A stretch of 43,604 nucleotides of DNA from assembly GCA_044869275.1 (NCBI GenBank), contig JBIOXB010000073.1:1-43604 (forward strand), given 5' to 3'. Position numbers and translations under genes: made by a program. Within the stretch, counting starts at the first letter, position 1, and the number at the start of each line of letters is the position of its first letter. This DNA is from a bacterium (GTDB lineage Bacteria; Zhuqueibacterota; Zhuqueibacteria; Zhuqueibacterales; Zhuqueibacteraceae). Shown here piece by piece: positions 1,854 through 20,973 of this stretch. Below the pieces are notes generated by a model. That model was not told where the DNA came from, searched no databases, and saw only the letters and a list, made by a program, of their open reading frames with translations.

Positions 1854-2522
1854 TCACAACCTCGTCACTCCTTCGATGCTCACTTGCACCGAATCCGCTC
1901 CCGGTTCTCCCGGCGAGAGCGCGCGAAAAGCGGTGGCGAAAACCGTTGCCGATCCGGAAAGGCCTTCGACGCGCCAGGGCTGCTGGTAGGGCGGGGAATT
2001 ATCTACGCCCAAAAGACTATCCCCCACGCGGAACTCGACGCGCTCGATGCCATTGGGATGGGTGGCCAGCGCCTCCACAATGACAACGCCGACACCGGGA
2101 ATGAATGCACCGGCTGCCGGCTTGACTATTTTTACGGTGGGGCGTTCGAGGGCGATAACCGAAAGCGTAACCGAACCCTCGGCTTCTCCATCCCTGTCAT
2201 CGCGAACCTTGACTGTGATTTTATAATCGCCAGCCAGGGCGGGCGTTGACCAACGCACGTGGCTTCCGGTCGTGGAGGAGAGCGTACCTCCTGCGGCGCT
2301 CCAGGTATAAGCGAGAGCGCTGCCTTCTGGATCGTGAGCCTCTACTTTTATGGTCGTCGTGTCCGCCGGGAAAAGGGGATGGCGCAGAGCGGAAATCCGA
2401 TCGATCACCGGTGCTTGGTTGGCTTGGATCAGCTTATTCAACTCATCGCAACCGAATAAAAGACTGAGCGCAAGCAACGCGAGCCAGGCCAGTTTAAGGG
2501 GGCGAATCAGCCTTCTCTCCAT
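1854..2522 (-). CDS. Lipoprotein with two Ig-like domains (PKD-like + bacterial Ig-like)
   Basis: Lipobox LLFGC. NQAPVI..EAHDPEGSALAYTWS..GDYKITVKVRD, then PTVKIVKP..GIERVEFRVGDSLLGVDNSPPYQQPW. Confidence 0.8.
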   Translation of the reverse strand: MERRLIRPLKLAWLALLALSLLFGCDELNKLIQANQAPVIDRISALRHPLFPADTTTIKVEAHDPEGSALAYTWSAAGGTLSSTTGSHVRWSTPALAGDYKITVKVRDDRDGEAEGSVTLSVIALERPTVKIVKPAAGAFIPGVGVVIVEALATHPNGIERVEFRVGDSLLGVDNSPPYQQPWRVEGLSGSATVFATAFRALSPGEPGADSVQVSIEGVTRL

Positions 2523-2528
2523 ATCTCT

Positions 2529-3296
2529 TCATTCCGCCAATGCTGCTTGCAGGACTTCCTTGCCAAGATCAGTGTTGTGCTCTATCATGACTGCTGCCTG
2601 CAAGCGTGCCGAATCGCGCACGCCAAGCAGGCTTGCCTCAAATCGGACGGATCTGGTTTCGCCGGCGGCGATGCCGCTGAAAATCTCCGGCGAAAAAACC
2701 TTGCGAACCACATGGTGGTGCCCGGTGGGACCCAAATCTTCCCACACCATGGCCTGCACGGCAAATGCCGAGAGACCGTTGTTGCCGAGCGGGGCGAACG
2801 TGGCGTCGATCTCGATGGTCGTCGCCAGAATATTTTTCCTTGCTTCGATGGTCAAATAGGCGATTTCGCTGTGTGCGGTTTGCAGGGCGCCACGATAACG
2901 CGTCGAGGCGTTGCGCGCGTCCGAGGCGCCTTGCAAGCGGAGGGCCGAGCCATTGAAAAATACGTCGGGAACGCCACGATCCGCTGCCGCCAAATCCCGG
3001 TAGCGGTCTGCGCTTTCCGGCAAGGCGTGGGCGTCGGCATAATTCGCGCTCGGCAGATGATGTTCCACGATGAGAATCTGATCCGCAGAGAAGGCGGAGG
3101 ACAAACTGTCCAAGGCCGTTAGTGCAAACGGGCTGAAAGGCGTTGCGTCGTTGACAAACGCTTCAACAAGAGTAACGCGCTGCCGCTCGCTCCGTGGATT
3201 TCTGGGATCGAGGAGATTATTTCTCTCCAATGCCTCGCATGCGCACAGCAGCAGGAGACCACCGCACAGGCCAAAGTGTAGTTTTCGAATCAACAT
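2529..3296 (-). CDS. Omp28-like thioredoxin-fold lipoprotein lacking CxxC
   Basis: Lipobox LCAC. RVTLVEAF, EHHL, GVPDVFFNG (cis-Pro loop) and HHHVVRKV match the Omp28 pattern. ATG at 3296 lies 5 bp after the upstream stop. Confidence 0.7.
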   Translation of the reverse strand: MLIRKLHFGLCGGLLLLCACEALERNNLLDPRNPRSERQRVTLVEAFVNDATPFSPFALTALDSLSSAFSADQILIVEHHLPSANYADAHALPESADRYRDLAAADRGVPDVFFNGSALRLQGASDARNASTRYRGALQTAHSEIAYLTIEARKNILATTIEIDATFAPLGNNGLSAFAVQAMVWEDLGPTGHHHVVRKVFSPEIFSGIAAGETRSVRFEASLLGVRDSARLQAAVMIEHNTDLGKEVLQAALAE

Positions 3297-3301
3297 TCTT
3301 G

Positions 3302-4240
3302 TCAAAAGTGCAAACAAACGCCGAGGCGTACGCCGCCCTGGTCAGCAAAGAAGGTCATTTCTTGCATCTGCCAAGGCCTCTCTGGCGGCGCCACGCTGGC
3401 AAAGACTTGATTTTGCTCCGAGCGCTCCTTCAACCAGAAATTGGCGCTGGCGATCGCCAATGCGCCAGTGGCAATGGCCAGAGCATTGCGGGCATTGCGG
3501 AAGTCATGGGCACGATCAAAATACTTGTCGAACTCTTCCAAGCTGGTGGCGGACTGATATTGCTGGTAGGCGTCTTGCGAGATCACATGCGTCACGCCGG
3601 TAGCCACTGCAGTCACGGCGGTGGCCAGCAAAAACCATGAGGTGGGATAGCTTTTCACGCGCAGACTTTGCCGGTATTGGCCCTCACCTTTTAGATTGAA
3701 CAAAATGTTTGCCGCCAGCAAACGCACCATGTCCTCGATGACTTCGCGATCGCGCCCAATCACTTTTTCACCGCGCACTTGCGCCGTCTCTACTTTGAGA
3801 ATATGGCAATCGATTCGCAAGCGTGAGCTGCCGGTCGCGCTGATCTCGCCGGTTAAGAGATACTGCGCCCCCGCCAGTTGCCCAAGCGTTTGCGCTGTTT
3901 TTTCATCAATTACTCCGGTTTGCCCCAGCGCGTGCTCCTGCAAAATCACATCCAGTTTTTGGCGTTCCACCACCGCTATGCCATTGCTGGTTTGAGAAAG
4001 CTCGGTTTTCAGCATCTCCGGCACGCTCTTTTCCAGCACATCAAGATTGAACAACCCACTGTTGTTCTTGAAATCCAAGACCGCAACGGTGATGGTGGCG
4101 GAATCCGGCGCAGCGAGCGGGAAAACTTGGATCTTTCCGTGTAGATCTGGCACAAGGGTTATATAGAATGCCACCACCAGGACAGCAAACGTGAGGCGAG
4201 AAACCAGATCATGCAATGGCCGCATGGTTATTTCTGGCAC
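3302..4240 (-). CDS. CsgG/HfaB-family protein with C-terminal hydrophobic helical hairpin
   Basis: Signal peptide. TVAVLDFKN, VVERQKLDVILQEHALGQTGVIDEKTAQTLGQLAGAQYLLTGEI. Two hydrophobic segments near the C-terminus. Confidence 0.8.
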   Translation of the reverse strand: MPEITMRPLHDLVSRLTFAVLVVAFYITLVPDLHGKIQVFPLAAPDSATITVAVLDFKNNSGLFNLDVLEKSVPEMLKTELSQTSNGIAVVERQKLDVILQEHALGQTGVIDEKTAQTLGQLAGAQYLLTGEISATGSSRLRIDCHILKVETAQVRGEKVIGRDREVIEDMVRLLAANILFNLKGEGQYRQSLRVKSYPTSWFLLATAVTAVATGVTHVISQDAYQQYQSATSLEEFDKYFDRAHDFRNARNALAIATGALAIASANFWLKERSEQNQVFASVAPPERPWQMQEMTFFADQGGVRLGVCLHF

Positions 4241-4300: not shown

Positions 4301-5872
4301 TCAATCCAACCCCGGCGCAGCTGGTGCGGCGCTTCCCTGCAAGCGCCGCAACTCATCAAAATGCATTTTCGCTTTGGCAAATTCACCCAAACGGCGGTAG
4401 TTGCGAACCAGCAGCTTGTGCAGATTGATGACTTCATCCGACTCGAGCTGGGTAACGAGTTTGTAGGCTTGTTCCGCGTCCTGCACCGCCTGTTTGGGAT
4501 CGGACTCGGCGAGCGCGGCCATGGCAAAATAGCTTTTGCCGCGGCCCGACCACGGTATCATGGCCGATTGCATGAAATAGGTGTAAGCCAGCTTGCTATC
4601 GACTTGCATTTTTTCATTGCCCATGTTCAAACACATCGTGCCGTAGGTGTCAAGATAAGTTTGGTTGGCTTTTTCGACCGGAGCGCCGCTGGCATCGTGC
4701 GGAATGCTTTCCACGATTTTAAGCATGCGTTCGCACGCCTCTTCTTGCCGCTCGAGCTGGGAAAAATCGAGAATCGCAATATTGCGGCCGATCTCGAAGC
4801 GCGCGCGGTCGGTGCGCAGCTTGGGCAGCATTTCCTGGTACACGGCCGAGGCCGAGGCAAACTCCCCACGCGTTGACCGCGCCGCTGCCGTGTCCCGCAA
4901 AACCGTGCCGAGGATTTGACCGCCGTCCCAATCCAGCCATGCGAGATTGTTTTGCACGGCGTTGCGATTTGCCGGCACGCTGGTGAGCGTGAGCGCGCGG
5001 CGAAAACTGGCATAGGCCTTTTCTTCGTTGAACAATTTGATCGCGCTCAAGCCTTGATAATAAACTGAAAGAAACAAGAGATTCGAATCAACCGCCGCCG
5101 CCACCGGTAGCGTGGCATACTGAATGCGGCTTTCTTTCACCTCGGCGGAGGCCAGCAATTTCTGCTCGCATTTTTCAAAATTATCGAGCGCCGGTTGCCA
5201 GGTCTGACTCGCGAAATAATTCTCGCCCAGGTGAAAATAGTGGCCATATTCACCCGGCTCGAGGCGCACCAAGGTTTCCCACAGGGCAATGGCGCGGGTG
5301 TAGTTGTTTTTATCCGCCAGCCGGTCGCCCAGTACGCGGTAGACCGCCGCCAGCAATGCGCGCGTTTGCACACTGTAGGGGTTCAGTTGCAACGCCCTGG
5401 AGAGCGCAGCCTCGGCTTCCTGCAAATAAGCAAGCGCTTGCTGCCGGGCGCGCTGATCTTGTGTGGCGACATATTGCTGCACGAACGGTGTGCCCTGCTG
5501 AACTTTTTGATAACCTTCGCGTGTCGCTTTCGACGCGGCCGCCGAATCCGCAGCCGAGACCTGAATCGGTTTCGCGGCGGCACGATCCAAGAGCGACAAC
5601 AATGAATCCGCATAGGCGCGTTTCTGCGTCGCCTGCACGACCCATGTTTGCGCTTGCTTTTCTTCTTCCAAGGAAACAAAAAGCTCCTGCGCCAGCGAGT
5701 CTGCATGCGCGGCGGTCAAAGGCGTCACTCCTGGAGGGACGCGCACTGAGTCGAAATTGCGCGCGACGGGACGAGAGGAGCTGCAACTTGACAACAGAAT
5801 AGCCGTGAGGCCCGTGACCGCATCGGCGCGCCAGCGGCGCTGCATGCGTTGTACTATCTTCTTCATAAGCAT
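4301..5872 (-). CDS. TPR-repeat lipoprotein (paralog of 6669-8153)
   Basis: Lipobox LLSSC. TPR signatures ALSRALQLNP and LEPGEYGHYFHLGENYF. Confidence 0.8.
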   Translation of the reverse strand: MLMKKIVQRMQRRWRADAVTGLTAILLSSCSSSRPVARNFDSVRVPPGVTPLTAAHADSLAQELFVSLEEEKQAQTWVVQATQKRAYADSLLSLLDRAAAKPIQVSAADSAAASKATREGYQKVQQGTPFVQQYVATQDQRARQQALAYLQEAEAALSRALQLNPYSVQTRALLAAVYRVLGDRLADKNNYTRAIALWETLVRLEPGEYGHYFHLGENYFASQTWQPALDNFEKCEQKLLASAEVKESRIQYATLPVAAAVDSNLLFLSVYYQGLSAIKLFNEEKAYASFRRALTLTSVPANRNAVQNNLAWLDWDGGQILGTVLRDTAAARSTRGEFASASAVYQEMLPKLRTDRARFEIGRNIAILDFSQLERQEEACERMLKIVESIPHDASGAPVEKANQTYLDTYGTMCLNMGNEKMQVDSKLAYTYFMQSAMIPWSGRGKSYFAMAALAESDPKQAVQDAEQAYKLVTQLESDEVINLHKLLVRNYRRLGEFAKAKMHFDELRRLQGSAAPAAPGLD

Positions 5873-5888: not shown

Positions 5889-6590
5889 TCATTCGCCTGC
5901 TTTGATAAAAACCGTATCGCGCTTGGTTTGCTCGATGTAAATCACATCGTAAATGGGTTTGTCAACGAACACCGTATCCGTGCGCGTGTAAAACAGTAAA
6001 TCATGCTTGTATCTGAAAGAGCGGGTCGTGTCTTGCAGTGCCTTTTTGTCGCCGAATCCCCAAATCTTCAAAGCCGCAATGCCTTTCACGTCGTCGAATT
6101 CGAAAAAGAGGCTCAGCTTCTTGCCCTTGATTTGGTAGATTTCTTCTATCATCCGCACCAACCCGGCGTGCATTTCCCGCGCCACGGGGAATTCCTTCTC
6201 GCGCACTTCGATTTGGCCGTATTTGTTCTTCGCGCCAATAACCTCGATGAAGCCGGTGCGCTTCCAATTGCGCATGACGTCCAGCGCGGTCTCCGCCTGG
6301 CTCAAATTCACCAGCTGGTCGGAAGGATAGACCTTGAGAATGTCCTTGTCGTCAAAGCCGTTTTCATTCATGTCGAACACTTCCATGCTGTCGATGCGAT
6401 CCTCGCTAATGAAGTATTGCTCGACGAAAAACTGAATGGTTTGGCGATCTTTGATTACCGCGACCGGCAACGCCTTGCGCGAAACGATTACTTCTTTATC
6501 GGACTGCGCCGCAGCCGTTTGCAGCAGGCCGGCTGCCAGCACCAATGCTGCTCCTGGCAATCTGGCTGGGAAGATTGAATAAAAGCTCAT
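5889..6590 (-). CDS. Secreted hypothetical protein with a possible Ca-binding DxNxNG loop
   Basis: Signal peptide ending AAAQ, the DMNENGFDDKD loop and an upstream AGGAG RBS. Confidence 0.75.
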   Translation of the reverse strand: MSFYSIFPARLPGAALVLAAGLLQTAAAQSDKEVIVSRKALPVAVIKDRQTIQFFVEQYFISEDRIDSMEVFDMNENGFDDKDILKVYPSDQLVNLSQAETALDVMRNWKRTGFIEVIGAKNKYGQIEVREKEFPVAREMHAGLVRMIEEIYQIKGKKLSLFFEFDDVKGIAALKIWGFGDKKALQDTTRSFRYKHDLLFYTRTDTVFVDKPIYDVIYIEQTKRDTVFIKAGE

Positions 6591-6668: not shown

Positions 6669-8153
6669 TTACTTCACCGCGCGGAGCGTGTCAAAATAGA
6701 ATTTGGCTTTGTCCATTTGATTCTTGCGGCGGTAACTGTCGATCAAAAGCCGGTAAAGTTTTTTCAACTGTTCACTATTCAATTGGTAGGACAAGGCCAA
6801 TGCATTTTCGCCGTCGCGGATGGAAAGATCGGCGTTGGAGTGGGAAAGTTCGGCCATCTGCAAATAGCTTTTGCCGCGTTCTTTCCAATTGATCGCCGCG
6901 GCGCGCGCGAAGTATTCATAGGCCACCCGCCGGTCCACCCGCAGCGTGTCAATGCCTAAATTGTAGCACATCGCCCCGTAATTGGCGAAATCCTGGATGT
7001 AGGTGGTGTCCAGGGGCGCGCCTTCCGCATCTTTAGGAATCCTTTGCAGCGCTTCGTCCAAGCGGGCGACGGCTGACTCTTTGCGATGCAGTTGCTGGTA
7101 TTCGATATCAGCGTAATCCCAAATAATTTCATCACGCGCGCGCTTGGTTTTCAAGGTCTCGTTCAACATTTTTTCATAAAGCTGAACCGTGTCGGTATAG
7201 CGGCCTTGTGCCACGAGCGCAGCGGCGGAGTCGCGGTAAACCGAGGCCAAAATATTGCCTGCGTCCCATTTGATCCACCGGATATCTTCGGCAATGCTGG
7301 CCAAAATCGTGGGGGAATTCACAAAGTTTCTCGCGCGCTCGAGATTTGACAGCGCTTGCTTGTCGTCAAAACTCTTGATGGCGCATTGTCCTTGGTAATA
7401 AATCGCGCGGAACAGTGTGAGGCTGTCCAGCGTTGCCTCCGGCAACAATTGGGGATTCCACAATCGCCGGTCGTTGACTTCGGTGGAAGCGAGCAGAATC
7501 TCTTCCGTCTTCTTGAAATTCTTCCAGGCTTCTTCCCATTGTCGTTGCGCATATTGGCATTCGCCCAGATTGTAGAAATGATGATATTCCCCTGGCTCCT
7601 GGCGCGCCAGCTCGGCCCAGATTTGTGCGGGTTGATCGAAAGACATCGCGCTTGGGAAGCGCTCGGCAAGCAGCTTGTAGGTGGCAGCCAAAAAATGTTT
7701 GGTGCGGAGCTGGAAGGGATTTAGCCGCAGAGATTTTTCCAGATGCTGGCGCGCCTCTTGCAAGTGATAGCTGGCTTGAATCTCGAGCTGGCGCTGGCGA
7801 ACATTGTGCGTGGTTGAACTCTGGCCATTTGAAGCAGTGGCATGGGCGGCTTCGTTTTGGTGGGCTGAATCGGCCGTAGGTGACAACGCCTGCTTGCCCT
7901 CTCTGCGCAAAAGCACCAGCAGTGAATCACAGGTGCGGAAATGCTGCAGCCCTTGCTGGCTCAACACTTCCGCCTGGTGCTCTTGTTTTTTAGCGACGAA
8001 CATGCGCGCCGCCACGGAATCAGCGCGCGCCAGCACTTTCGTCGAGACGCCGCGCGCATTGGAGCTCCCCTTCGAGCCGGCGCAACCAAATGCAAAAAAA
8101 GCCATCACCGCCCATGACAGTGGAACGACTCTTTCAAAGTTGAATGCCTTCAT
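6669..8153 (-). CDS. TPR-repeat lipoprotein (paralog of 4301-5872)
   Basis: Lipobox FAFGC. LEKSLRLNP and QEPGEYHHFYNLGECQY. The ATG overlaps the upstream TGA (ATGA at 8150-8153), which implies translational coupling. Confidence 0.8.
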   Translation of the reverse strand: MKAFNFERVVPLSWAVMAFFAFGCAGSKGSSNARGVSTKVLARADSVAARMFVAKKQEHQAEVLSQQGLQHFRTCDSLLVLLRREGKQALSPTADSAHQNEAAHATASNGQSSTTHNVRQRQLEIQASYHLQEARQHLEKSLRLNPFQLRTKHFLAATYKLLAERFPSAMSFDQPAQIWAELARQEPGEYHHFYNLGECQYAQRQWEEAWKNFKKTEEILLASTEVNDRRLWNPQLLPEATLDSLTLFRAIYYQGQCAIKSFDDKQALSNLERARNFVNSPTILASIAEDIRWIKWDAGNILASVYRDSAAALVAQGRYTDTVQLYEKMLNETLKTKRARDEIIWDYADIEYQQLHRKESAVARLDEALQRIPKDAEGAPLDTTYIQDFANYGAMCYNLGIDTLRVDRRVAYEYFARAAAINWKERGKSYLQMAELSHSNADLSIRDGENALALSYQLNSEQLKKLYRLLIDSYRRKNQMDKAKFYFDTLRAVK

Positions 8154-9862
8154 TTCTTCTTGTTGTTGTCCCACCAGGAAAGAAAAATGTTGTAAAATTG
8201 CGAAGTCTCCTCCCGCGTCGGGCTGTTTTCAAGCATCGTGAGCGAAGAGACGATACGATCTTCATCGCGCGACGCCCGGCCCTTGCTGAGATAAAAGCTC
8301 TTTTTGCGAAAACCGGTATCTCGCAGCATGATGGCATTGCCGCTGTGTTCCTCTACCATTAGAATCCCAATATCCTGGGAGAACTCATTGCACAAAATAT
8401 AAAGATCATAATTCACCGGGGCCGTCGTGAGGCTGACGTTGGCCGTGAGATCGCCCGGCCGGTAACGCAGGTAATGCTTGAGCACGGGCGAAAGCTCGGA
8501 ATGGTTCGATTTCAACCATTCGATCAATTCCAGAAAGACTCTATTGAGATCAACGGTCTCCAGATTTTTTTCCTTGACCTCGACTTTATTCGTGCCAGCC
8601 GCCTCGCCCTTGCGCTCCACCGCAGGCTTCAGCCCCGTGCCGCTCCCATTACCCAGGCCAGGTCCCGAACCCACTCCTCCTCTGCCCGGGTCCTCGCCAT
8701 AGCCGCCGCTGCCGCCGGAACCGCCACCGGTCCCGGTTCCCCCACGCGTTCCGCCACCACCACCACCATAGCCGACTTTGGTAGCCGCTAAGTCCGCGGT
8801 ATAACCCGTGGCACTCCCACTGGACGAGGCAGTCGGCAACCCGACCCCGGTGGGATTCTGATAATCTGGAGCGTTTTTGTCGGCTAGGATGATGCTCCCA
8901 ATATCGAGCTCGGGCAGAGCGGAAGCTTGCAAGGATGAAGTGATGCGCTGTGGCGGCGCCAATCCCGGGGTGGAGGGGCGTCCCAGTTGCGCGATTTCTT
9001 TCAGCCGTTCGATTGCCACCATGGGGACGTAGTTTTCAGGAGTGTTGATAGGCCCCGGCTGGCCGGGCGCGGGAGCGCCTGGCGCTGCGGGTTCCGTAGC
9101 AGCGCCTCCACCCGCACGTCTGCGAGCGGAACGAATTTCCGGAACAATTTTGGGCTCGATCTCTACATACTTGAAAATCGTTACCGTTTGGGGGTGTTCG
9201 CCTTCTTCCAGAGTTGACCAGTAAACCAGTACTCCCGCGAGATGCAGAACCGCAGCAATGGCCAGGCCGCGTGAAACATTTTTCTGATAAATTCTGTGGA
9301 GCTCTTGGCGGCCATAATCTGTCAAAAAATAAAAACCCTCGAACGAAATGGGCTGAAACTGTTCTCGCACCGCCTGCACAAATTTCGCCCAGGAGAAACG
9401 CGGAGTTTCTGGTGCCCAATCAAGTTCAAGGAGTGCCCGCGCTCGGGCCGGAAAAGTCGAGGCAGCAGCGAGAGCCGCAGGCTGGGTGGCGAGCGCATCC
9501 GCTGACGCAGCGGTGGCCAGCCAAGCGTGCAAAGTGTCGACCGGTATTTCGGCGGCCCGTGCAAATTTCCAGTTCGTGAGCTTGCCTTCTTCCCAGAGGT
9601 AACGCTGCACGATAAAGTTTTTGAAATTTTCACTGTACGTGACCACGCCGGCCTTTTCGGTCATCGCCTCGAGATGCGCGAGACGAAACCGCAAGACGTC
9701 CATTGTGATTTGGTCTTCACGCGAACGGCCCCGGGGCCGCGATTCCGGCGCGGCAGGCTGGGAAGACCAGTGCCTGCCGAGCCACCTGAAGAGACTGTTC
9801 TTAAAGCGGCGCAGCGAATAAGATTGTGGAGGCGTTTTCATCAGCTTGTCCAGAGGGAACAA
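8150..9862 (-). CDS. Inner-membrane protein: N-terminal HTH-like domain, TonB-type TM anchor, Pro/Gly-rich linker, unrecognised C-terminal domain
   Basis: YSENFKNFIV..FARAAEIPVDTLHAWL (HTH-like). DYGRQELHRIYQKNVSRGLAIAAVLHLAGVLVYW (TonB-like anchor with His). Long P/A- and G-rich tracts. Confidence 0.7.
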   Translation of the reverse strand: MFPLDKLMKTPPQSYSLRRFKNSLFRWLGRHWSSQPAAPESRPRGRSREDQITMDVLRFRLAHLEAMTEKAGVVTYSENFKNFIVQRYLWEEGKLTNWKFARAAEIPVDTLHAWLATAASADALATQPAALAAASTFPARARALLELDWAPETPRFSWAKFVQAVREQFQPISFEGFYFLTDYGRQELHRIYQKNVSRGLAIAAVLHLAGVLVYWSTLEEGEHPQTVTIFKYVEIEPKIVPEIRSARRRAGGGAATEPAAPGAPAPGQPGPINTPENYVPMVAIERLKEIAQLGRPSTPGLAPPQRITSSLQASALPELDIGSIILADKNAPDYQNPTGVGLPTASSSGSATGYTADLAATKVGYGGGGGGTRGGTGTGGGSGGSGGYGEDPGRGGVGSGPGLGNGSGTGLKPAVERKGEAAGTNKVEVKEKNLETVDLNRVFLELIEWLKSNHSELSPVLKHYLRYRPGDLTANVSLTTAPVNYDLYILCNEFSQDIGILMVEEHSGNAIMLRDTGFRKKSFYLSKGRASRDEDRIVSSLTMLENSPTREETSQFYNIFLSWWDNNKKK

Positions 9863-9878
9863 TCATAGTCCTCAATAA

Positions 9879-11780
9879 TTACGGATTCAAATGCACGGTT
9901 GCCTGAATCTGCTGCGGTAAATTGGCTGGAAGCTGCTTCAGCACTTTTTGGTAAATGCGCTCCGGCCGGCGATCCACCACGAGTTTTCTTTTGGGCGAAC
10001 GATAGGTGTTGCCGTCTGCCGATTTCCAGGCGAGATAGTAATAATAATTGCCGGCATCAGGATAGCCCCCGTCTTTTACTTTCCAATCCCACACCAAACG
10101 TTGCAAGATTTGCGGCTGATCTTTTTTGTTCTTGCGCCTGGCAACGGTCGAATCAAACCAGACTTTGCCGGCGGCGTCCTCAATTAGGAGCGTGCCCGAA
10201 ACCGGGCCCCAGCGCACGGTTTCATCCAAATTCAAACTGAAATCAAATACCGTCGCCGGCGCGCTGAATTTGCGCTCGAAATCTTCCGTGCGCACGGAGT
10301 CGGCACCGAGATAATTCTGCTGCTGCACCTTGGCCGAATCGGCCACGGCCACGAGCAAATTATCGGTGATCGGACCGTACAGCTCAATGTAGCGCAGAAT
10401 CAAGTGCGTGCGCCGCGCATCCGGCGGCACGATTACGGTGGTGCGAAAACCAGGATCGCGCAGGCGCTCGGCCAGGTTGCGAAACGCCTCACGATAACTC
10501 TTGGTGTGGTTCTTTTCCATTTCTTTCACCAGCGCCAAACTGTCGCGCGGCACACTGAAACGGCCCGTCTGTTTTTCCTCTGCGGCGATTTTATCCAGCA
10601 AGCGCGCGGCGCTCATGCGCGCGCTGCGTGTCGGAACCGGCGGTGAGGACAGATAAATATTGTCCGGTGTTTCAGGACGCGGGCTGCCGGTGGAATAAAA
10701 AATCGCGCGCGGCAATTCCGCACGCTCTTTGACGCTGATTTGCGCATCGATTTCGCGGAAAATGTGGGTGTCGACGATGGCGACAGTATCGACAGAAGAT
10801 CGCACGGTGAAGGCATCAGCCAAACTAATGGCCGGCGGCAGCGGCACGTTGGTTTGCACCCATTCCGGTTCGTAGGGCAACGCCCGCTTTTTGAAGTTGA
10901 AAATCAAGCCCAGCTCGTGCGAGCCGTCACTGGCGAGGTTGAGATCGTTGATGGGATAATTGTAACGATAATTCACGCTCACACCGCTGATCACGTGCAA
11001 CTGACCCTCGAAGGCCATGGCCTCCGCGCTGTAGCCGACTTTGAGATAGCCGCGCTCCAGCGACAACGCTTGCAGGAAAATTTGTGAAGAGAGTTCTTCG
11101 TTTTCGTGGAAGAAAGACAGGCCGGCGGCAAACTGGCTGAACCCGACCACCGCTCCCGCGCTGAGATAGCGCTCCAAACGCACTTCGCTGTTTTCTTGGA
11201 AGGCGATATTCGGGCGGTTGATGTTGTTTGCGCTCGCGCCGAGCTTGAGATAGCGGTTCACGTTGACGAAGATGCCCGCACCCAGGTTGAAAAGCGCCCA
11301 CTCCGAGGTTTGTTGCAGCAGCGGATCGTTCAAATCCGCACCCTCGAAATTCGAAAACGAGCGGTTGAGCACGCCGATGCTCACTCCGGCGCTCACGCGT
11401 TCCCCGATTTTGGTGCTGGCGATGGCATTGAGGGCAAGATCATTCATCACCGGGGTGTTGAGCACTTGGCCCTGAATGCCCCAGCCAAAATTCTTCTGGC
11501 CAAAGAGTGTTCTATCCCTGGTGGTGAGCCCGAAAAAATTATTGCGGAAGGAAAAAGTGTTCTCACCCACGCCGAGATGCAAAGCTTGCAGACCGGCGGT
11601 GAAAAGTGGATCCTGAAATGGCACAGCCGCAGGATTGGCCAAATTCAAACGCGCGTCCAGCATATCCGCGGGATTCGGCGTGATCAACGTTTGCGCGCGC
11701 AAAGCCAAGGAAGGCAGCAGCGCTGCCGCAAAGGTTAAAAGGCTTGCAAGGCCCTTGTACAGTCGTTTCTTTCCTTTCAT
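9879..11780 (-). CDS. PorP/SprF-family T9SS outer-membrane beta-barrel with long C-terminal extension
   Basis: Signal peptide. NPAA, DPLL, LGASANNINRPNI and YNYP..DGSHELGLIFNF are PorP/SprF motifs. The C-terminal WDWK..DAGNYYYYL is FlgD/Ig-like. Start set at MKGKK with an AGGA RBS. Confidence 0.8.
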   Translation of the reverse strand: MKGKKRLYKGLASLLTFAAALLPSLALRAQTLITPNPADMLDARLNLANPAAVPFQDPLFTAGLQALHLGVGENTFSFRNNFFGLTTRDRTLFGQKNFGWGIQGQVLNTPVMNDLALNAIASTKIGERVSAGVSIGVLNRSFSNFEGADLNDPLLQQTSEWALFNLGAGIFVNVNRYLKLGASANNINRPNIAFQENSEVRLERYLSAGAVVGFSQFAAGLSFFHENEELSSQIFLQALSLERGYLKVGYSAEAMAFEGQLHVISGVSVNYRYNYPINDLNLASDGSHELGLIFNFKKRALPYEPEWVQTNVPLPPAISLADAFTVRSSVDTVAIVDTHIFREIDAQISVKERAELPRAIFYSTGSPRPETPDNIYLSSPPVPTRSARMSAARLLDKIAAEEKQTGRFSVPRDSLALVKEMEKNHTKSYREAFRNLAERLRDPGFRTTVIVPPDARRTHLILRYIELYGPITDNLLVAVADSAKVQQQNYLGADSVRTEDFERKFSAPATVFDFSLNLDETVRWGPVSGTLLIEDAAGKVWFDSTVARRKNKKDQPQILQRLVWDWKVKDGGYPDAGNYYYYLAWKSADGNTYRSPKRKLVVDRRPERIYQKVLKQLPANLPQQIQATVHLNP

Positions 11781-11827
11781 ATGTTCTCTTCCTGTTTGCG
11801 AATATTCCTGAGCGAGAGAAATCTGCC

Positions 11828-14800
11828 TTACCTCACCACGCCAACGTGTCCGCTGCCCAGAGCTTTGTCGCCATCCTGCAAAATCCACATGTAAGTATGC
11901 GGAGAAACCAGCCGCCGTTCTTGATCTTGGCCGTTCCATCTGATGGTTTTGGTCTCGGCATTGCCTTCGAGCGTCGCAATCAACTGGCCGCGCATGTTGA
12001 AGATTTTGATGACCGGCTCGAATACTTCTTCGATGTCGGGAAACTCGAAATCGGCGAAATCATTGTAACCGTCGCTGTTGGGTGTAAACACCTCCGGCCT
12101 GACGCGCACGCCGCGATCGGGCCGGCCACGGCCGATGCCGGAGAGCTGCACGGTGCGGGGATCGCGGGTTTGCCGGCTTTTCACCAGCACCTCATTGAGG
12201 TGCGGGCCGGAAACCTCAGGTTTGAATTTGACCTGTACCAACACCGAGTCAAGTGACTTCAATTCCGGCAGCGGAAAAGCGGGCGAGATAATTTCGTACT
12301 CGCTGGTATGATCCAGCGCGGCCTCGACGTTTCTCAAATCCAGCGGCCCGCTGTTGATGATGTGAAATTCCCGCGTGGTGCTGTCCCTCCTGATGTACAG
12401 CCGGCCGAAATCCAAATTCTCAGGATAGACTCTCAAATCTGCAACCAGCTCGACGATTCCTCTTCCCATTAATTGCACCACATGCAGCGTGTCCCGGAAG
12501 GCATCGCTGACGAGCACGAAGGAACTGCGCAACTCACCGTCTCGGCTGGGTCTGAAGGTGATCTGCACGTCCTTGGTCTCACCCGGCTCCATCCGCAAAG
12601 GCAGACGCGGGAGTAATTCTATGGTGAAATCGGACTGAGGCTGCTGGACGCTCAAGATCGTCAACGGCGCTGTGCCGACGTTCTTGATGGCGTCGTAAGC
12701 CGTCACGCGGATGGACCGGCCGACGCGCTCACCTTCGAGGTTTAACGGCGACTGCGCGAAAATGGCTGCCGCCACACCGTCGCCACGCACAGCCACGCCA
12801 AATGTGGAATCTTCGCGAGCATTTCCGTTGCGGATTTTGGCAATCGGCACGTCCAGGGTGTCACCGAACAGACCAGGCTCCGGCGGCGCGAAACAGACGG
12901 AGATCGAGGCCTTGCCCCCGGGCAAGATCAACAAATCCAGACCTTGTCCTTCGACTTTAAAAGCGGTGCTCCGGCGCAGCGCAGCCGAGGCCACGGACAG
13001 ACTGTCACGCGACCGATTTTCGATTAACACGAACATGCAGCTGTCCTGTCCCACCCGCACTTTGCCAAAATTGAGTGGATTCGGGCCTACACCGAGGATC
13101 GGCGCCGAGCCGTTGCCCTGCAACTGCACCGCTTTCGGATTTTCATCGCCGTCATTGCTGGCGATATTCAATATCGCGAGACGCGCGAGCGAATCCGCGG
13201 GTGCAAACTTGATGGTTAACCTTGCAGTATCACCCGAGGCGAGAGAGAAGGGCACCGCGGGTGTGGCGGTGAGAGTGAAATCGTTCGGATGCTGCCCGGC
13301 GAGTGAGAATGAATGCACGCGCAGCGAGCAAGCACCGGTGTTGTGCAGCGTGTAAATCCTCTCGGCGAAACTGCCCACAGACGTTGATGGAAAAAGCAGC
13401 AGATTGGCGCCCGCGATGTTCGCCTGGCCCTTGTTCCCGGACAAAACAATCACGTAGGGATTTTCGTCCGGATCGTTGCTAACAATGGACAGCGTGGCGT
13501 GTGCCGATTGCGCCACAGCCGGATCGAACGAAACCGTCAGGGTAATCTTCTCGCCCGGCATGAGAGTATCGGGCACTGCTTGCGTTGTCGTATAAGCTGG
13601 ATCGGTGAACGTGAAGGCAGTCACGAACAGGGTGGCATCGCCTTCATTCGAGAAGATCAGTTCGCGCGTTGTTTTTGCGCAATCCGCGCCGAAGCTCAGG
13701 GTGTCGCGCTCAACAGCGATATCCGGTACTTTGGGCGGAACGGGCAGGCCATTGCCGATCAAACGCACAGTGAAGGGGTTGTCCGAAGCTGGACCGGGAT
13801 CGTTGTTGTAGACCAGCAGGTTGGCAACGAACAGGCCCACAGCCGGCGGGGTAAATGAAACAGGAATGCCCAGGCTGTCACCCGGCGGAATGATTCGACC
13901 GGTGAAATCGCCCACCACGGCGAACGGTTCCTGCGCCAGGATTTTGGGCAGATCCTTGTTCGCCGCGAGATCTTTGACCACAATCGCGGAATCCACCACC
14001 AGATCACAAACGCCCACGTTGCGGACAAAAACCGTGTCGATCTCTGTTTGATTCACCGGCGTCGGCGGAAAGAGGTGTTCTTCCGGCCCGGCGATTTGGC
14101 CCGAAACTGCTTCGCCTGAAACCGGAATCAGCACCGGCGGCACGTCGGGATTCTGCCAAACGATGCGGAGCGTGTCCGTGACCCTTTCCAGCGTTTGCGG
14201 CTTGAACCCGATGGTCAACGCCTGGCTCTGGCCCGGCAGAACTTGAAAATCGGTCGTCGGCTCGACGCTGAATTCCGGACGGCCCACGGTAAAGCCGAGC
14301 GAGGCTGCGACGACTGCGACCGAACCATTGTTGACGATTTCCACCACTTGCGTGCTGTCGCCGCCCAAACACACGGAGAGAAACGCCAGCTGAGGAGGTC
14401 TGGGAAAGACATTGACTTGTTGCCCTGCGCCGTGCAGCACGATGCGCACCGGATTTGAATCCGGTGCATTGTTCTCCACCAGCAGCGTCGCGAAATGCTC
14501 GCCGGCGCGGAGAGGACTAAAGGTGACCGGCAGATTGAGTGTGTCGCCAGAGCGCAGAGTGGACGGCAGGCCGGAGACATCCACGGAAAAAGATGAAGAA
14601 TCGGCGCCAGTGAGGCGCGCGGCGCGAATGTCCAAATCACATTGCGCGGCGTTCCAAATCAAAGCGCTGGCGCCTCGCGATTGCTGCAGCGGCACCACAC
14701 CAAATTCCACGGTATCGACTGCCGCGACTTGCGGTGACAAAACTTTTCCCGGCACGACAATCTGATGCGGACTGCCTGGGGCATTGGACCAAAAGGTGAC

Positions 14801-17260
14801 GCGCAATTCGAAATCGCGCGGCGGCTGGGTGATTTCTATGGGGATGGTTGCGCTGTCGCCCGGCGCGATAATGAGCGGCACAGAAGCTGGATGCGACACG
14901 AATGAAGATGACGTCGATGTTGTTTGTTGCAAGAACGCGATCGCGACTCTGAAGGAATCGACGCGCAGCTCACAAGACGTGCTGGTGTTAAAAATCACGA
15001 TTCTGGTTTCACCCGATCGGCCGAGACAAACTTCGAGCCGCGGCGGCCTGGCCGCCAATGCGATCTGCGGCCGTTCGCCCTTGCCGGTCAATGCCACCGT
15101 TTCCGCACCGGCATTGCTTTGTAATGCCAACGTCCCCCTGGAGGTGCTGGTGTCAGCAGGCGTGAAGCGAATCGGCACAAAGAGCGCTTGATTGGGCAGC
15201 AAGGTGAAAGGGAAAACCAAGCCGGTGGTATCGATCGCAAAAGCAGGGTTGGAAATAGTTGCGCTGTTGATGACGATATTGACCAGGCCGAGGTTTCTGA
15301 TTTGAACATAATCGCGAACGGTGGTATCCACGCAAGCGGCGAGCGTTAATGCTCGCGGCGTCACTTCCCAGCGCGGTTGGGGTGTGGTGCCGGTGCCGCG
15401 CAATGCCACTGCCAGTGGATTCGTGTCGGTATCATTGCTGAAAACTTGCAGCGTGGCGTTGCGTTCACCCACGGCTTTCGGATTGAAAGTGACGGGCAAG
15501 AGCAGACTATCGCCGGCACCCAGTTCCACGGGAAAATTGCTTGGTACCACGGAGAAGTCGGCGGCATGCGCGCCGGTGATGCGCACCGAGTCGACGCGCA
15601 GCACACAGCTTCCTACTGCACGAATGGCGACCCTGTCCAAGCGGCTCATGCCCACTTCTGTTGCCGGGAAAATTAAGCTCGCCGGCCCGGCAATCTGCGG
15701 CGAGATGCCTTCACCGCGCAGAATAATGGCGAACGGATTATGATCGGGATCGTTGCTGGAGACAAACAGCGTATCTTGAAAAACGCCCACAAGGTTTGGG
15801 GCAAAACTAACGGAAATAATCAAGCGTTCGCCCGGCTGCAGACGCGCTGCGCGGCCTTCAAATTTGAATACCGGACTGTTCAGCTCGAAAGCGGATATGA
15901 TCAACTCCGCAGAACCATCATTGGAAAGAGTATCCTTGAGAACGGCTTCGGTATTCAAACAAACCTGGCCGAATAAGACCGGATTGGGGCTCGCCACCAG
16001 CCTCGCGGGTTTTTGGCGCACGGCATAAATTTTCCGCAAGCTGGGGACGTACATCGTGCCGTTCGAGCCGAAGGCGGGAGAGTATTTGCATTGCACCTCA
16101 GGCAGGCGCCACAGAATTCGCTTGTCCGGCGCGAGCGCGAACAAACCAAAATCCGAACGCTCATTCACAATAAAAATGTTTCCTTGCGCATCGACCACCG
16201 GCATGGTTTTGTAGCGCGAAGTGCCAAGATCAAGAGGCCAACCGGCCTTGGGTCTGCCTTCCGGCGTCAAAGCGAGCAACAAGCCGCGATCGAATCCGGC
16301 GAAATAAATCGTGCCGTCAGGGCCGAGGGCGGGCGGGGAAGGAGGACCATAAGTTTGGTCGTAAGCATGGGCCCAAACTTCGTTGCCAGTTTCGGCGTTG
16401 AGCGCAACCACAAGCGCATTCGTGCGGGACCCGGCGTACACCAAGTTGCCATTCGGACTTATCACCACCCACGCCACTTCGCCGAGTCTCGCAAGACTCC
16501 ATTTTGCGATTCTGTTGCAAGACGGGTCAAAAACATAAATGTTATTTCCGGCAGGGGCATAGACTCTGCCGCTCGCACTCAAGGCAGGTGTTGCTCCCGG
16601 CTTTTCACCATCAAAATTTGCGGTGCACAGCAAACTGCCGGAAGAATTGAAGACGTAGAGCCGCCCGTCATCGACGGGGACATAGAGATGTCCGTCATTG
16701 TCCACATTCGCCGCCGCGCTGACAAAGCCACCAACCGCTGCGCGCCAGCGCAAGTTGCCGTTGAGATCGAGCGAGAGAAAACTGCCTTGCTGCGTGCCGA
16801 CGTAAATATTGCCATCTTTGCCGATCACCGGCGGCGACGAGAAGGTCTCGTTGCCGTTTCCTCCCTGCCGGGCCCGGCTGAATTGCCATTTCTTGGAGCC
16901 ATCCGCATTCAACGCGTAGACAAATTCGTCTCCTCGGCTAATGAAGATAATGCTGCCCTCTGGCCCGACCACGGGCGATTCAATTTTCTCTGATCCGATC
17001 GGAACTGTCCATTGCAGTTCGGGGAGTAGAGGCCCATTGACGGCGGCACGGCCGTTCAACGCGGCGTTGAAACGGTAGAGTGGCCATGAAGATTGGGCAA
17101 GCGCATTTTGCGCAAGGCCCATTCCGGCCAGAATGAGAACGCACAGCATGGCTTGGCTGTGCAGGTGTGGCGAGAGTGTCGGACGAACCCCGGCTGCTTT
17201 TTTGCATCTTCCCTGAGCAAAAAGAACTGGCATCACGATTTTAGTCGAGGCTTGAACCAT
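11828..17260 (-). CDS. Large surface adhesin: PQQ-like beta-propeller, 12 ASH/choice-of-anchor-D Ig repeats, type B (gliding-motility/CHU_C) T9SS CTD
   Basis: SWPLYRFN..GR start, repeated SxPxxGxDGxIY..LxA..G..W blades, repeats ending SNDxDxNP..LxGxG, and C-terminal VFTPNSDGYND..IFNMRG..WNG..SGHVGVVR. The start codon is uncertain. Confidence 0.9.
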   Translation of the reverse strand: MVQASTKIVMPVLFAQGRCKKAAGVRPTLSPHLHSQAMLCVLILAGMGLAQNALAQSSWPLYRFNAALNGRAAVNGPLLPELQWTVPIGSEKIESPVVGPEGSIIFISRGDEFVYALNADGSKKWQFSRARQGGNGNETFSSPPVIGKDGNIYVGTQQGSFLSLDLNGNLRWRAAVGGFVSAAANVDNDGHLYVPVDDGRLYVFNSSGSLLCTANFDGEKPGATPALSASGRVYAPAGNNIYVFDPSCNRIAKWSLARLGEVAWVVISPNGNLVYAGSRTNALVVALNAETGNEVWAHAYDQTYGPPSPPALGPDGTIYFAGFDRGLLLALTPEGRPKAGWPLDLGTSRYKTMPVVDAQGNIFIVNERSDFGLFALAPDKRILWRLPEVQCKYSPAFGSNGTMYVPSLRKIYAVRQKPARLVASPNPVLFGQVCLNTEAVLKDTLSNDGSAELIISAFELNSPVFKFEGRAARLQPGERLIISVSFAPNLVGVFQDTLFVSSNDPDHNPFAIILRGEGISPQIAGPASLIFPATEVGMSRLDRVAIRAVGSCVLRVDSVRITGAHAADFSVVPSNFPVELGAGDSLLLPVTFNPKAVGERNATLQVFSNDTDTNPLAVALRGTGTTPQPRWEVTPRALTLAACVDTTVRDYVQIRNLGLVNIVINSATISNPAFAIDTTGLVFPFTLLPNQALFVPIRFTPADTSTSRGTLALQSNAGAETVALTGKGERPQIALAARPPRLEVCLGRSGETRIVIFNTSTSCELRVDSFRVAIAFLQQTTSTSSSFVSHPASVPLIIAPGDSATIPIEITQPPRDFELRVTFWSNAPGSPHQIVVPGKVLSPQVAAVDTVEFGVVPLQQSRGASALIWNAAQCDLDIRAARLTGADSSSFSVDVSGLPSTLRSGDTLNLPVTFSPLRAGEHFATLLVENNAPDSNPVRIVLHGAGQQVNVFPRPPQLAFLSVCLGGDSTQVVEIVNNGSVAVVAASLGFTVGRPEFSVEPTTDFQVLPGQSQALTIGFKPQTLERVTDTLRIVWQNPDVPPVLIPVSGEAVSGQIAGPEEHLFPPTPVNQTEIDTVFVRNVGVCDLVVDSAIVVKDLAANKDLPKILAQEPFAVVGDFTGRIIPPGDSLGIPVSFTPPAVGLFVANLLVYNNDPGPASDNPFTVRLIGNGLPVPPKVPDIAVERDTLSFGADCAKTTRELIFSNEGDATLFVTAFTFTDPAYTTTQAVPDTLMPGEKITLTVSFDPAVAQSAHATLSIVSNDPDENPYVIVLSGNKGQANIAGANLLLFPSTSVGSFAERIYTLHNTGACSLRVHSFSLAGQHPNDFTLTATPAVPFSLASGDTARLTIKFAPADSLARLAILNIASNDGDENPKAVQLQGNGSAPILGVGPNPLNFGKVRVGQDSCMFVLIENRSRDSLSVASAALRRSTAFKVEGQGLDLLILPGGKASISVCFAPPEPGLFGDTLDVPIAKIRNGNAREDSTFGVAVRGDGVAAAIFAQSPLNLEGERVGRSIRVTAYDAIKNVGTAPLTILSVQQPQSDFTIELLPRLPLRMEPGETKDVQITFRPSRDGELRSSFVLVSDAFRDTLHVVQLMGRGIVELVADLRVYPENLDFGRLYIRRDSTTREFHIINSGPLDLRNVEAALDHTSEYEIISPAFPLPELKSLDSVLVQVKFKPEVSGPHLNEVLVKSRQTRDPRTVQLSGIGRGRPDRGVRVRPEVFTPNSDGYNDFADFEFPDIEEVFEPVIKIFNMRGQLIATLEGNAETKTIRWNGQDQERRLVSPHTYMWILQDGDKALGSGHVGVVR

Positions 17261-20800: not shown

Positions 20801-20973
20801 TTCGTCAGCCAAATAGGTTTCTTGAACGGAACCCTGTTTTCCTGGTTGCTGGTTTTCCGCGCATGCGCATTTTTCCTCTCGCTTGTGCGCGCGGATGAAG
20901 CCAGCCCGTTTAGGCTGAAAATAAAAAAAATGCCAATCACCAGCCTGCTCCCAGCCGGTACGGCCTTTCGCAT
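17863..20973 (-). CDS. Type A T9SS-CTD secreted protein with jelly-roll (MAM/InhA-like), CARDB-like and FN3-like domains
   Basis: Signal peptide. TEPNFD..IRLRFRFISD..WFLDDI, DQGRRVQVSW, DNLAPSVP, YAVTAVDMNGNPS, and C-terminal NYPNPFNPQTTIEF..PSGIYFYRL..KKMVLMQ. Confidence 0.85.
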   Translation of the reverse strand: MRKAVPAGSRLVIGIFFIFSLNGLASSARTSERKNAHARKTSNQENRVPFKKPIWLTNQAPSPALTNSRTTSAATILWEDDFEGSQAPWTPVASWTNTPVRSGNPDAGFVFGDHSGWARVDTIAQEPPSPKHAWRNDDNENTAIDLLISPIIHLPRSLDGEPLLKACVRFYLDLHAPDVEFEGNLQDFYYVRAGRATALWKFESVAPFSGSSHWALHQSPIEAQGAFNVQSIATPEINLAGAVNPALSFVQLYATEPNFDYCAVDLSTDQFATYKTLARYSGIRALYSSVALNLRNYAGKKIRLRFRFISDFGFSQPNARWFLDDIAVKDGTRVLFSDNGGDDGRTTMTKWGFAGGDAFIGLDFDKDAANPAALWVERDSTSIDRGSLNILDSAAGLVPGDSIRLAFHWVTNGSLAQGNGRGIFIDEIALEAITGVADDVAMIDLDVPFPNVEMMPAQQALVRVGNHGSHSQNAVPVRYRLDGGPALAPSPPLNFDLASASEGEGILNWKTPGAGIYTLSTQTELAHDTRRANDTLSVAPVVVYPHGIAELGYDDRFHQNGFVTGSKSLVSFTVNRDLRGGVQQYTLHQVKVDLFNGSNSRDQVRLVVATASNDTTVQTILFDGIEPVPARDFSSHVLQVNARDLTAERLVVLVDFSVSHGNARLLMDGGTRFTGHNFFFDGKRWSPSSLGRQIRARLSWLPGAKIILVRDLPADQGRRVQVSWFPSSSEAFSRNISHYALWRGVKNPGAADSNFRAIEVPSMPALYEYGIQNGKPGDRVVVAGNAAWDFLVRMPASPGLEAYSLAAPTLNDSNFTGMNYTAFMVTAYDGGRRFADAKIDSGYSVDNLAPSVPAGFTAARILANQRPAVRLQWRAVADEDLAHYALYKNGSVVLLAITTDLAFTDLAVTVGEMVSYAVTAVDMNGNPSARANVSLNITRLNERSQPVLPAVYELGNNYPNPFNPQTTIEFSLPLRGHVRLGVFNFLGQEIETLIDAEMPAGFHRTIWEAKAQPSGIYFYRLTVNDFRQIKKMVLMQ

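Follow-up and report, generated by a model that had tools for sequence, protein, structure and literature searches.

A transducer-like membrane protein with a transposase-type helix-turn-helix and a C-terminal domain distinct in sequence from TonB_C beside a probable PorP-cargo pair in Zhuqueibacteraceae

The window analysed in this study is a whole 43,604-nucleotide stretch of DNA (contig JBIOXB010000073.1 of assembly GCA_044869275.1) from a bacterium of the Zhuqueibacteraceae, whose genome, here called G000, is 94% complete. On its minus strand lies a gene for a 570-aa protein, in which a sequence-only reading had seen a transposase-type helix-turn-helix (HTH), a TonB-like membrane anchor, a Pro/Ala-rich then Gly-rich spacer and a C-terminal domain that it did not match to TonB_C. 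We investigated this protein and the family that its C-terminal domain defines. Its features, with the evidence on which each was called, are as follows.

8150..9862, minus strand: 570-aa open reading frame (ORF), the long form, with HTH and membrane-helix His, of an unnamed transducer family; a single-pass inner-membrane protein.
9425..9829, minus strand: cytoplasmic module of a basic leader and a homeodomain-like HTH, core about 9488-9721 (transposase identity, AlphaFold, tree).
9218..9328, minus strand: TonB-type membrane anchor, residues 179-215 (sequence, anchor profile, TonB alignment).
9152..9193, minus strand: D-box-like strand after the membrane helix, residues 224-237 (six of seven pattern positions, proline-flanked, aligned with TonB).
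8591..9151, minus strand: periplasmic linker of about 188 aa, Pro/Ala-rich then Gly-rich (composition).
8153..8590, minus strand: conserved C-domain, residues 425-570 (146 aa), which defines the family (profile, AlphaFold, structure searches).

The ORF starts at TTG 9862, with GAGG 7 nt upstream; an alternative start at ATG 9841 would give 563 aa. The ratio of nonsynonymous to synonymous substitution rates (dN/dS) was far below 1 in all computable regions against two relatives, although the second comparison had two regions with saturated dS. The ORF is a real gene. Promoter and terminator scans gave consensus matches and nothing more. Contigs of 248 and 173 nt from two RNA libraries fell at 9137-9384, over the anchor, and none over the HTH; with a word share of 0.05 and a possible DNA origin, they were not used. 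The sole hydrophobic segment, residues 195-220, contains His207. Pfam on the whole ORF matched HTH_Tnp_1 alone (E 0.039, below the cut-off), and NCBIfam matched 0 families. Residues 237-345 consist of 17% Pro and 15% Ala, a Pro-rich periplasmic linker of the TonB/TolA kind, and residues 346-424 of 41% Gly, as the earlier description of the spacer had it.

A whole-protein search found 20 homologs, 16 long and four of about 355 aa. Because 15 of the 20 carry the HTH, the N-terminal 170 aa are, judged from these sequences, a genuine lineage-specific fusion and not a start-site error. Its conservation at the protein level in the long homologs led us to reject a later true start. The same 170 aa are absent from most members of the family. 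The sequence-only reading had allowed for such an absence, together with a plain TonB_C fold at the other end; the absence was borne out for most members but reflects a real fusion, and no TonB_C was recognised by sequence.

The C-domain (residues 425-570) had no match in Pfam or NCBIfam, and TonB_C matched 0 of 63 members of its family at E up to 1. An hhalign comparison with a TonB_C-type domain gave a probability of 0.1%, and the C-domain differs from TonB_C in the predicted order of its elements and in length (146 aa vs a 79-position model). AlphaFold predicted two helices, a six-stranded antiparallel meander and a final helix, with a mean predicted local distance difference test score (pLDDT) of 90.8. 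The VWA models of Pfam also matched 0 of 63 members, and the predicted meander is not a Rossmann fold. Foldseek found no match at E 0.001. The best row of a wide structure search was TipC2 (Z 6.7, root-mean-square deviation (rmsd) 4.4, 121 residues aligned), and TonB_C was not among the rows listed. Language-model look-alikes, which serve as leads only, scored at most 0.80. A strong PDB sequence match was a designed repeat protein without a passing stretch and was treated as an artefact. By sequence, the C-domain is not TonB_C, and it appears to be without a clear solved structural relative.

A genome scan located the family at 68 loci in KSB1/Ca. Zhuqueibacteraceae, Calditrichota, Balneolota, Rhodothermota, Gemmatimonadota and one Melioribacteraceae (Ignavibacteria), and a profile of 63 C-domains matched 278 clusters at 50% identity. 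The closest relatives at these loci are of KSB1 type, as the uncultured source of the window probably is. The typical member has about 350 aa and a short N-terminus, with neither the mid-helix His nor the HTH. Two members are of unusual form. P0022, of 1330 aa, ends in two tandem C-domain copies after an unrelated N-terminal part with a carboxypeptidase-regulatory-like domain, and the family gene of L068 (Melioribacteraceae) appears as two ORFs of 244 and 108 aa.

In the membrane anchor, the His207 codon lies at 9244-9242, and Ala203-x3-His207 fits the Ser-x3-His register; Ala also takes the Ser position in the canonical TonB of this genome. When an anchor profile was run against G000, the best other match was this TonB, in contig C243 (E 3e-10), followed by two TonBs at E 0.01 and 0.13. 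The pairwise alignment with the C243 TonB has 25 of 64 residues identical (39%) and spans the helix and the following strand, in agreement with the TonB-like anchor of the sequence-only reading. The C243 TonB ends an ExbB-ExbD-ExbD-TonB cluster. According to the accessible parts of two reports, the Ser/His face binds TM1 of ExbB and Ton and Tol cross-complement (PMC12215075), and the TonB D-box binds ExbD (PMC10907165). The D-box pattern used here, a sequence pattern only, was taken from the latter report, and the D-box-like strand is a predicted ExbD-binding site. Among the 16 long homologs, the anchor position holds His in 11, Asn in three and Ser in two, so that conservation of this His, proposed earlier as a check, held for most long forms and not for the family, most of whose members are without it.

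The usual operon of the family runs in the order type IX secretion system (T9SS) cargo of type B, PorP, ExbB, ExbD, ExbD, transducer gene and TPR lipoproteins. Neighbours were compared in 69 loci (the 68 of the genome scan and the window): PorP-like genes occurred in 52, ExbB-like in 55, ExbD-like in 51 (an undercount due to ORF picking), TPR lipoproteins (family F1) in 58 and a 233-aa family (F3) in 54. Pfam identified the cognate ExbB as MotA_ExbB plus Big_1 domains (3/3 tested) and the two small genes as ExbD (8/8 tested). The C-terminal Big_1 (invasin-type Ig) domains of this ExbB (L004:7589-9115 and other F2 genes) are expected on the cytoplasmic side from ExbB topology. A TM1 position with Ser/Thr in most canonical ExbBs has a bulky residue in the cognate ExbB, as judged by eye, in line with a His-less transducer partner. 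The window itself contains no exbBD genes, as had been noted before.

We then related the anchor to the gene upstream. Loci L001-L130 and the window were pooled, entries with identical last 120 residues were collapsed and those with fewer than 110 aligned residues dropped, which left 91 rows. The upstream gene was known at 85 distinct loci, with ExbD directly upstream in 69 and not in 16. The mid-helix His was absent from 68 of the 69 ExbD-linked forms, the exception being L017, which is flagged for a far-end His. It was present in 16/16 of the ExbD-less forms, where the upstream gene was PorP (13) or a canonical ExbB (3). Six rows had no upstream call: two truncated, two with His, one with Asn and one with Ser. 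The His/no-ExbD label, borne by 18 rows, took seven changes on a quick C-domain tree (maximum likelihood), five of them forced by well-supported branches, vs 16.6 in shuffles; it is spread over at least three clades, one with a distinct anchor sequence. We conclude that the anchor has been exchanged where the ExbD pair is absent.

Cognate ExbD was found in 17 and cognate ExbB in 16 of 19 genomes of this bacterial family. Both are missing from G000 and from G158 (same genus, 99% complete), and each of these genomes has one family member, the long form. G000 encodes six further ExbB genes and gave 11 TonB_C matches. Lacking motor genes of its own and having a TonB-type anchor, the window protein likely borrows a housekeeping ExbBD. 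With the ExbB-ExbD-ExbD genes as usual upstream context, a TonB-matching anchor and a C-domain other than TonB_C, these results support the proposal of an energy transducer with a new effector domain. Both arrangements occur together in L106/L013 and L126, in which a long HTH/His form lies between PorP and the cognate ExbB, and the motor genes follow.

Loss of the motor could instead have left the protein as a passive tether between the inner membrane and the PorP-cargo/TPR complex, with the anchor as a mere helix and the HTH as a tolerated passenger from an insertion sequence (IS). Such a tether would account for the cognate motor being absent in both G000 and G158, for the five of 16 long homologs without His and for the long HTH branch in this genome, and most family members function without an HTH. 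Nevertheless, we consider it unlikely. A mere helix would not need a swap to a TonB/TolA-type anchor with a D-box in at least three clades. The anchor region shows a dN/dS of about 0.1 when compared with the closest relative; the HTH stays in frame with a low dN/dS and has moved to a second transducer family. Asn, moreover, can reportedly stand in for His20 of E. coli TonB, to go by the title of Swayne and Postle 2011.

The HTH-like motif noted earlier (residues 74-118, at 9643-9509) lies in a region, residues 48-125 approximately, that AlphaFold folds with a block pLDDT of 94-97. This segment shares 41% identity over 111 aa with a 626-aa DDE transposase (E 2e-19). In other fusions an unbroken stretch of about 200 residues is retained as far as the catalytic core, at whose start the membrane anchor follows instead. 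The best rows of structure searches were TnpE, a transposase protein (Z 5.7, rmsd 4.2, 57 aligned), and CENP-B (Z 5.1, rmsd 2.8, 54 aligned); these modest scores agree with the sequence match. A word-based protein search with the HTH alone gave four close relatives, and the transposase surfaced through profile searches. Language-model look-alikes, again leads only, scored at most 0.84 and were mostly transposase/homeodomain clusters. Matches to the HTH profile came from five of the order's 29 genomes and from 14 metagenome loci; they were long family forms, 446-451-aa proteins ending in AgmX/PglI (TonB_C-type) and the 626-aa proteins. The last match rve (E 4e-5) and an IS21 model (E 8e-4), both below the cut-off, and occur in 3.45-kb units, which are IS-like because they are bounded by perfect 14-bp inverted repeats. 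There are two units in tandem in G158 (L131:84-3539 and L131:3611-7100) and one on a metagenome contig (L120:39-3491), and their transposase passes no family cut-off. No copy of IS DNA was found in G000, where the transposase alignment is confined to the N-terminal region, without the catalytic core.

In a tree rooted on three transposases, 30/30 fused HTH copies formed one group (support 100/99) with 11 Glt-type copies nested inside, although with a tool warning about long branches that converge near the root. The dN/dS of the HTH was 0.25/1.67 (about 0.15) and 0.31/1.28 (about 0.24) in two comparisons, and the HTH is under purifying selection. Across homologs its conservation is divided, present in 15 of the 20 above and not family-wide. 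These patterns of presence of His and HTH are themselves the finding, though neither is conserved across the family. The comparisons point to the N-terminal region of a DDE transposase as the source of the HTH, and because of this origin a tie of the protein to DNA is plausible.

The order of a cytoplasmic HTH, a single membrane helix and a periplasmic domain might also suggest a membrane-bound one-component transcription regulator, in which the C-domain or the motor would sense the state of an envelope machine and the HTH would bind a specific operator. Transposase HTHs bind specific DNA ends. The 14-bp IS-end motif occurs in G000 in 0 exact, two one-mismatch and 46 two-mismatch copies, against 11-105 for 10 shuffled motifs; none with up to two mismatches lies in the window, and the nine fusion loci hold one match. 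Because the motif is not enriched in G000, it gives no pointer to a specific operator. The helix and the C-domain lie about 190 low-complexity linker residues apart, an unrelated TonB_C-type protein begins with this HTH as well, and the HTH-less majority implies a core function other than regulation. We therefore regard a regulator as quite improbable and as the weaker reading when set against a transducer, even though gltH expression rose 4-5 fold in Myxococcus when gltG was deleted, according to the accessible part of PMC3169522.

The 11 proteins of the second kind headed by the same module are GltG/AgmX-type TonB_C proteins where tested or complete. The 446-451-aa fusions sit in an Agl/Glt-core-like cluster beside another GltG-like gene. 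This cluster (L132:582-8130, L119, L128) has two ExbB-ExbD-ExbD sets and three AgmX/PglI-ended transducers, one of them HTH-headed; the related clusters L134 and L135 of G000 have no HTH gene.

This second setting bears on whether the HTH might bind protein, as RodZ binds MreB or as the FHA domain of GltG may, and link the unit to the cytoskeleton or to another cytoplasmic partner. The HTH stands next to a GltG-like gene in those clusters, occupies the position of the cytoplasmic FHA domain of GltG (PMC3169522, accessible part) and might replace the C-terminal Ig domains of the cognate ExbB, which are predicted to be cytoplasmic. We nevertheless find a protein-binding role improbable. The HTH is of transposase type, and 0 of 21 members gave a RodZ-type match, so that the RodZ/MreB analogy of the sequence-only reading was not supported. 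Fused copies have 15-34 K+R and 8-17 D+E, vs 12-15 K+R and 18-20 D+E in transposase segments; a basic charge gained after capture is a better fit to DNA or anionic lipid. Nine of 16 ExbD-less forms are, in addition, without any HTH.

The window protein lies in a co-directional run of a 1810-aa cargo, a PorP/SprF-like barrel, the transducer, a TPR lipoprotein, a 233-aa protein, a second TPR lipoprotein and three exported proteins, listed here in that order.

11828..17260, minus strand: 1810-aa surface protein with a beta-propeller, Ig/choice-of-anchor D repeats and a type-B T9SS C-terminal domain (CTD) of CHU_C type (Pfam/NCBIfam).
9879..11939, minus strand: PorP/SprF-like outer-membrane barrel with a C-terminal extension (PF11751, E 7.5e-14).
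6669..8174, minus strand: TPR lipoprotein, conserved neighbour of family F1 (58/69 loci).
5889..6590, minus strand: 233-aa exported protein without a known family; F3, a conserved neighbour (54/69 loci).
4301..5872, minus strand: second F1 TPR lipoprotein.
1854..4240, minus strand: three co-directional accessory genes, for a CsgG-like protein, an Omp28-like lipoprotein and a PKD/Ig lipoprotein.

The PorP-like gene is directly upstream of the transducer, and relatives place ExbB-ExbD-ExbD between the two. The 1810-aa protein is likely the cargo of the adjoining PorP. Two runs that modelled the C-domain in complex with the TPR lipoprotein and the 233-aa neighbour each scored 0.00 and gave no answer on a partner. 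The three-gene set at 1854..4240 was shared with a single other locus examined. In a third paralogous operon type (L094:5932-10964, L099, L101), vWA/cohesin proteins with CTDs are encoded immediately upstream of a transducer and its ExbD pair (or, instead of the pair, a canonical ExbB). The Gemmatimonadota loci L043:11756-14155, L050:5067-7244 and L034, which have no PorP/cargo just upstream, encode a 233-aa neighbour lengthened to 600-800 aa by Asp-rich repeats that resemble calcium-binding loops. Upstream of the operon, the window encodes a 1036-aa protein (17863-20973) that carries an InhA-like MAM domain together with a type-A T9SS CTD. A 1254-aa protein at 22520-26284 has helix-hairpin-helix (DUF4332-like) repeats at its N-terminus and matches metallophosphoesterase weakly, and the next gene (20992-22296, 434 aa) matched no family. 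GC content is lower (45-49%) at 1-2000, where a 252-aa ORF with a weak NAL1_N match may be what is left of a protease gene.

Type-B substrates of Bacteroidota remain attached to a PorP-like carrier of their own, and leaving SprA needs an energy input, as stated in the accessible parts of previous reports (PMC12635249; PMC9143113; PMC12618676). The window has a CHU_C-type CTD protein beside a PorP/SprF-like barrel at Pfam cut-offs, with SprA in the genome; the NCBIfam cut-offs for PorP and type-B CTD were not reached. G000 has SprA and PorV-like genes, and a second PorP-like gene fused to OmpA-type wall-binding domains (L136:5165-7345). Among 167 phylum genomes, searches found SprA in 163 and GldM over the cut-off in 0; 5/5 genomes from other phyla carrying the family also had SprA without GldM over the cut-off. 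One query found the family in only 63 of the 167, which marks it as optional, a module for particular cargo rather than a general T9SS motor. A general replacement of that motor was rejected on the same counts, 63/167 vs 163/167 for SprA.

On balance, we lean with moderate confidence towards a TonB/TolA-style force transducer that serves the adjoining PorP and type-B cargo and plugs into a housekeeping ExbB-ExbD motor. ExbB would receive the His helix and the ExbD pair the D-box-like strand, the partner motor being most likely the canonical ExbB-ExbD-ExbD-TonB cluster (G000:C243). The linker would span the periplasm, and the C-domain would pull on the PorP-cargo pair, via the TPR lipoproteins or the PorP extension, to free the pair from the SprA translocon or to position it. 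We infer the motor coupling and the partner of the C-domain. The basic HTH may bind DNA without sequence preference and so tether the transducer-motor unit to the nucleoid, as something to pull against or as a means of positioning. This tether is the least certain step, and we put it forward tentatively, as possible rather than probable.

Several observations weigh against this transducer. A Gly-rich linker is a poor rigid lever, and the Ser position of the Ser-x3-His motif is Ala. The His is missing from five of the 16 long homologs, and the mid-helix His pattern was defined after inspection of the data. In six ExbD-linked anchors (L017, L034, L094, L096, L099, L100), the far end of the helix bears a His. 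Independent events are few, since every His form belongs to a single bacterial family or to its metagenomic relatives. In several Gemmatimonadota loci, motor and transducer are present and PorP/cargo is not just upstream, and the family occurs in fewer than half of the phylum genomes with the one query used. GldL, GldM and GldN were not found in G000 with the queries used, and the searches for these three, that for GldM in the phylum included, had no working positive control. The HTH of this genome has the longest end branch of its tree (0.63) and may be relaxing, and the ExbD-less forms without HTH count against a strong role for it.

Taken more widely, bacteria with SprA and without GldL/GldM might power type-B surface proteins by a Ton/Tol-type motor and a new transducer family. 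One family would have been rewired repeatedly to housekeeping motors by anchor swap, and a domesticated transposase DNA-binding domain would chain such machines, this one and the GltG-like one, to the chromosome, giving a continuous nucleoid-to-surface link. We think this generalisation doubtful as a whole. Its parts offer a testable candidate for how some of type IX secretion is energised in SprA+ phyla without detectable GldM. The anchors are a natural experiment in which motor specificity may travel with a short helix-plus-D-box cassette, as laboratory Ton/Tol swaps suggested. The HTH would be a clear bacterial case of a transposase fragment recruited to host envelope machines, selected and passed between two transducer families. 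A literature search over titles and abstract openings, with few subscription journals and no supplements, found neither the family nor its anchor swap or HTH fusion described. Should the HTH bind DNA, its link from the nucleoid to a proton-driven envelope motor is likewise without description in that literature. Five terms, among them TonB, secretion and motility, do not occur in PMC11683472, a report on this phylum, and the supplements of PMC12204202 may list further transducer families.

The protein shares with TonB and TolA an N-terminal membrane helix with a His in the Ser-x3-His register, a D-box-like strand, a Pro-rich linker and a globular C-domain, and its family is normally encoded after exbB-exbD-exbD. 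It differs in a C-domain other than TonB_C, in Ala for Ser and in a cytoplasmic extension of about 180 aa with a transposase HTH; the family is tied to PorP and T9SS cargo instead of TonB-dependent transporters or TolB/Pal, and most members lack the His. In contrast to the helix-flanked beta-meander found here, the force transducers of Williams-Jones et al. 2025 (PMC12204202) end in a vWA domain with a Rossmann fold, and the accessible text of that report does not describe an HTH, a PorP link or an anchor swap. They are a parallel case with another fold. The T9SS type-B modules SprB-SprF and PG1035-PorP-PorE (PMC9143113 and PMC12618676, accessible parts) similarly place a type-B CTD gene beside a PorP-like barrel and TPR lipoproteins; the neighbours here have no PorE-type wall-binding domain and include a Ton/Tol-type transducer instead, with GldL/M/N undetected by our queries.

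Unlike the 626-aa DDE transposase, the window protein has a membrane anchor in place of the catalytic domain. RodZ has an HTH, a membrane helix, a linker and a periplasmic domain in the same order, but its HTH class and C-domain are others, and the window protein gave no RodZ-type match in Pfam or NCBIfam. GltG (PglI) of Myxococcus Agl-Glt gliding is, in the accessible part of PMC3169522, a TonB-like transducer that combines a cytoplasmic domain with a TolQ/TolR/TolR motor and TPR partners, and the HTH-anchor module of the window also heads GltG/AgmX-type proteins in relatives. The FHA domain and TonB_C-type end of GltG are both absent from the window protein, which no GltG model matched; AgmX/PglI models match the other HTH fusion. 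The window protein probably works in the manner of TonB/TolA or GltG, but its C-domain sets it outside both.

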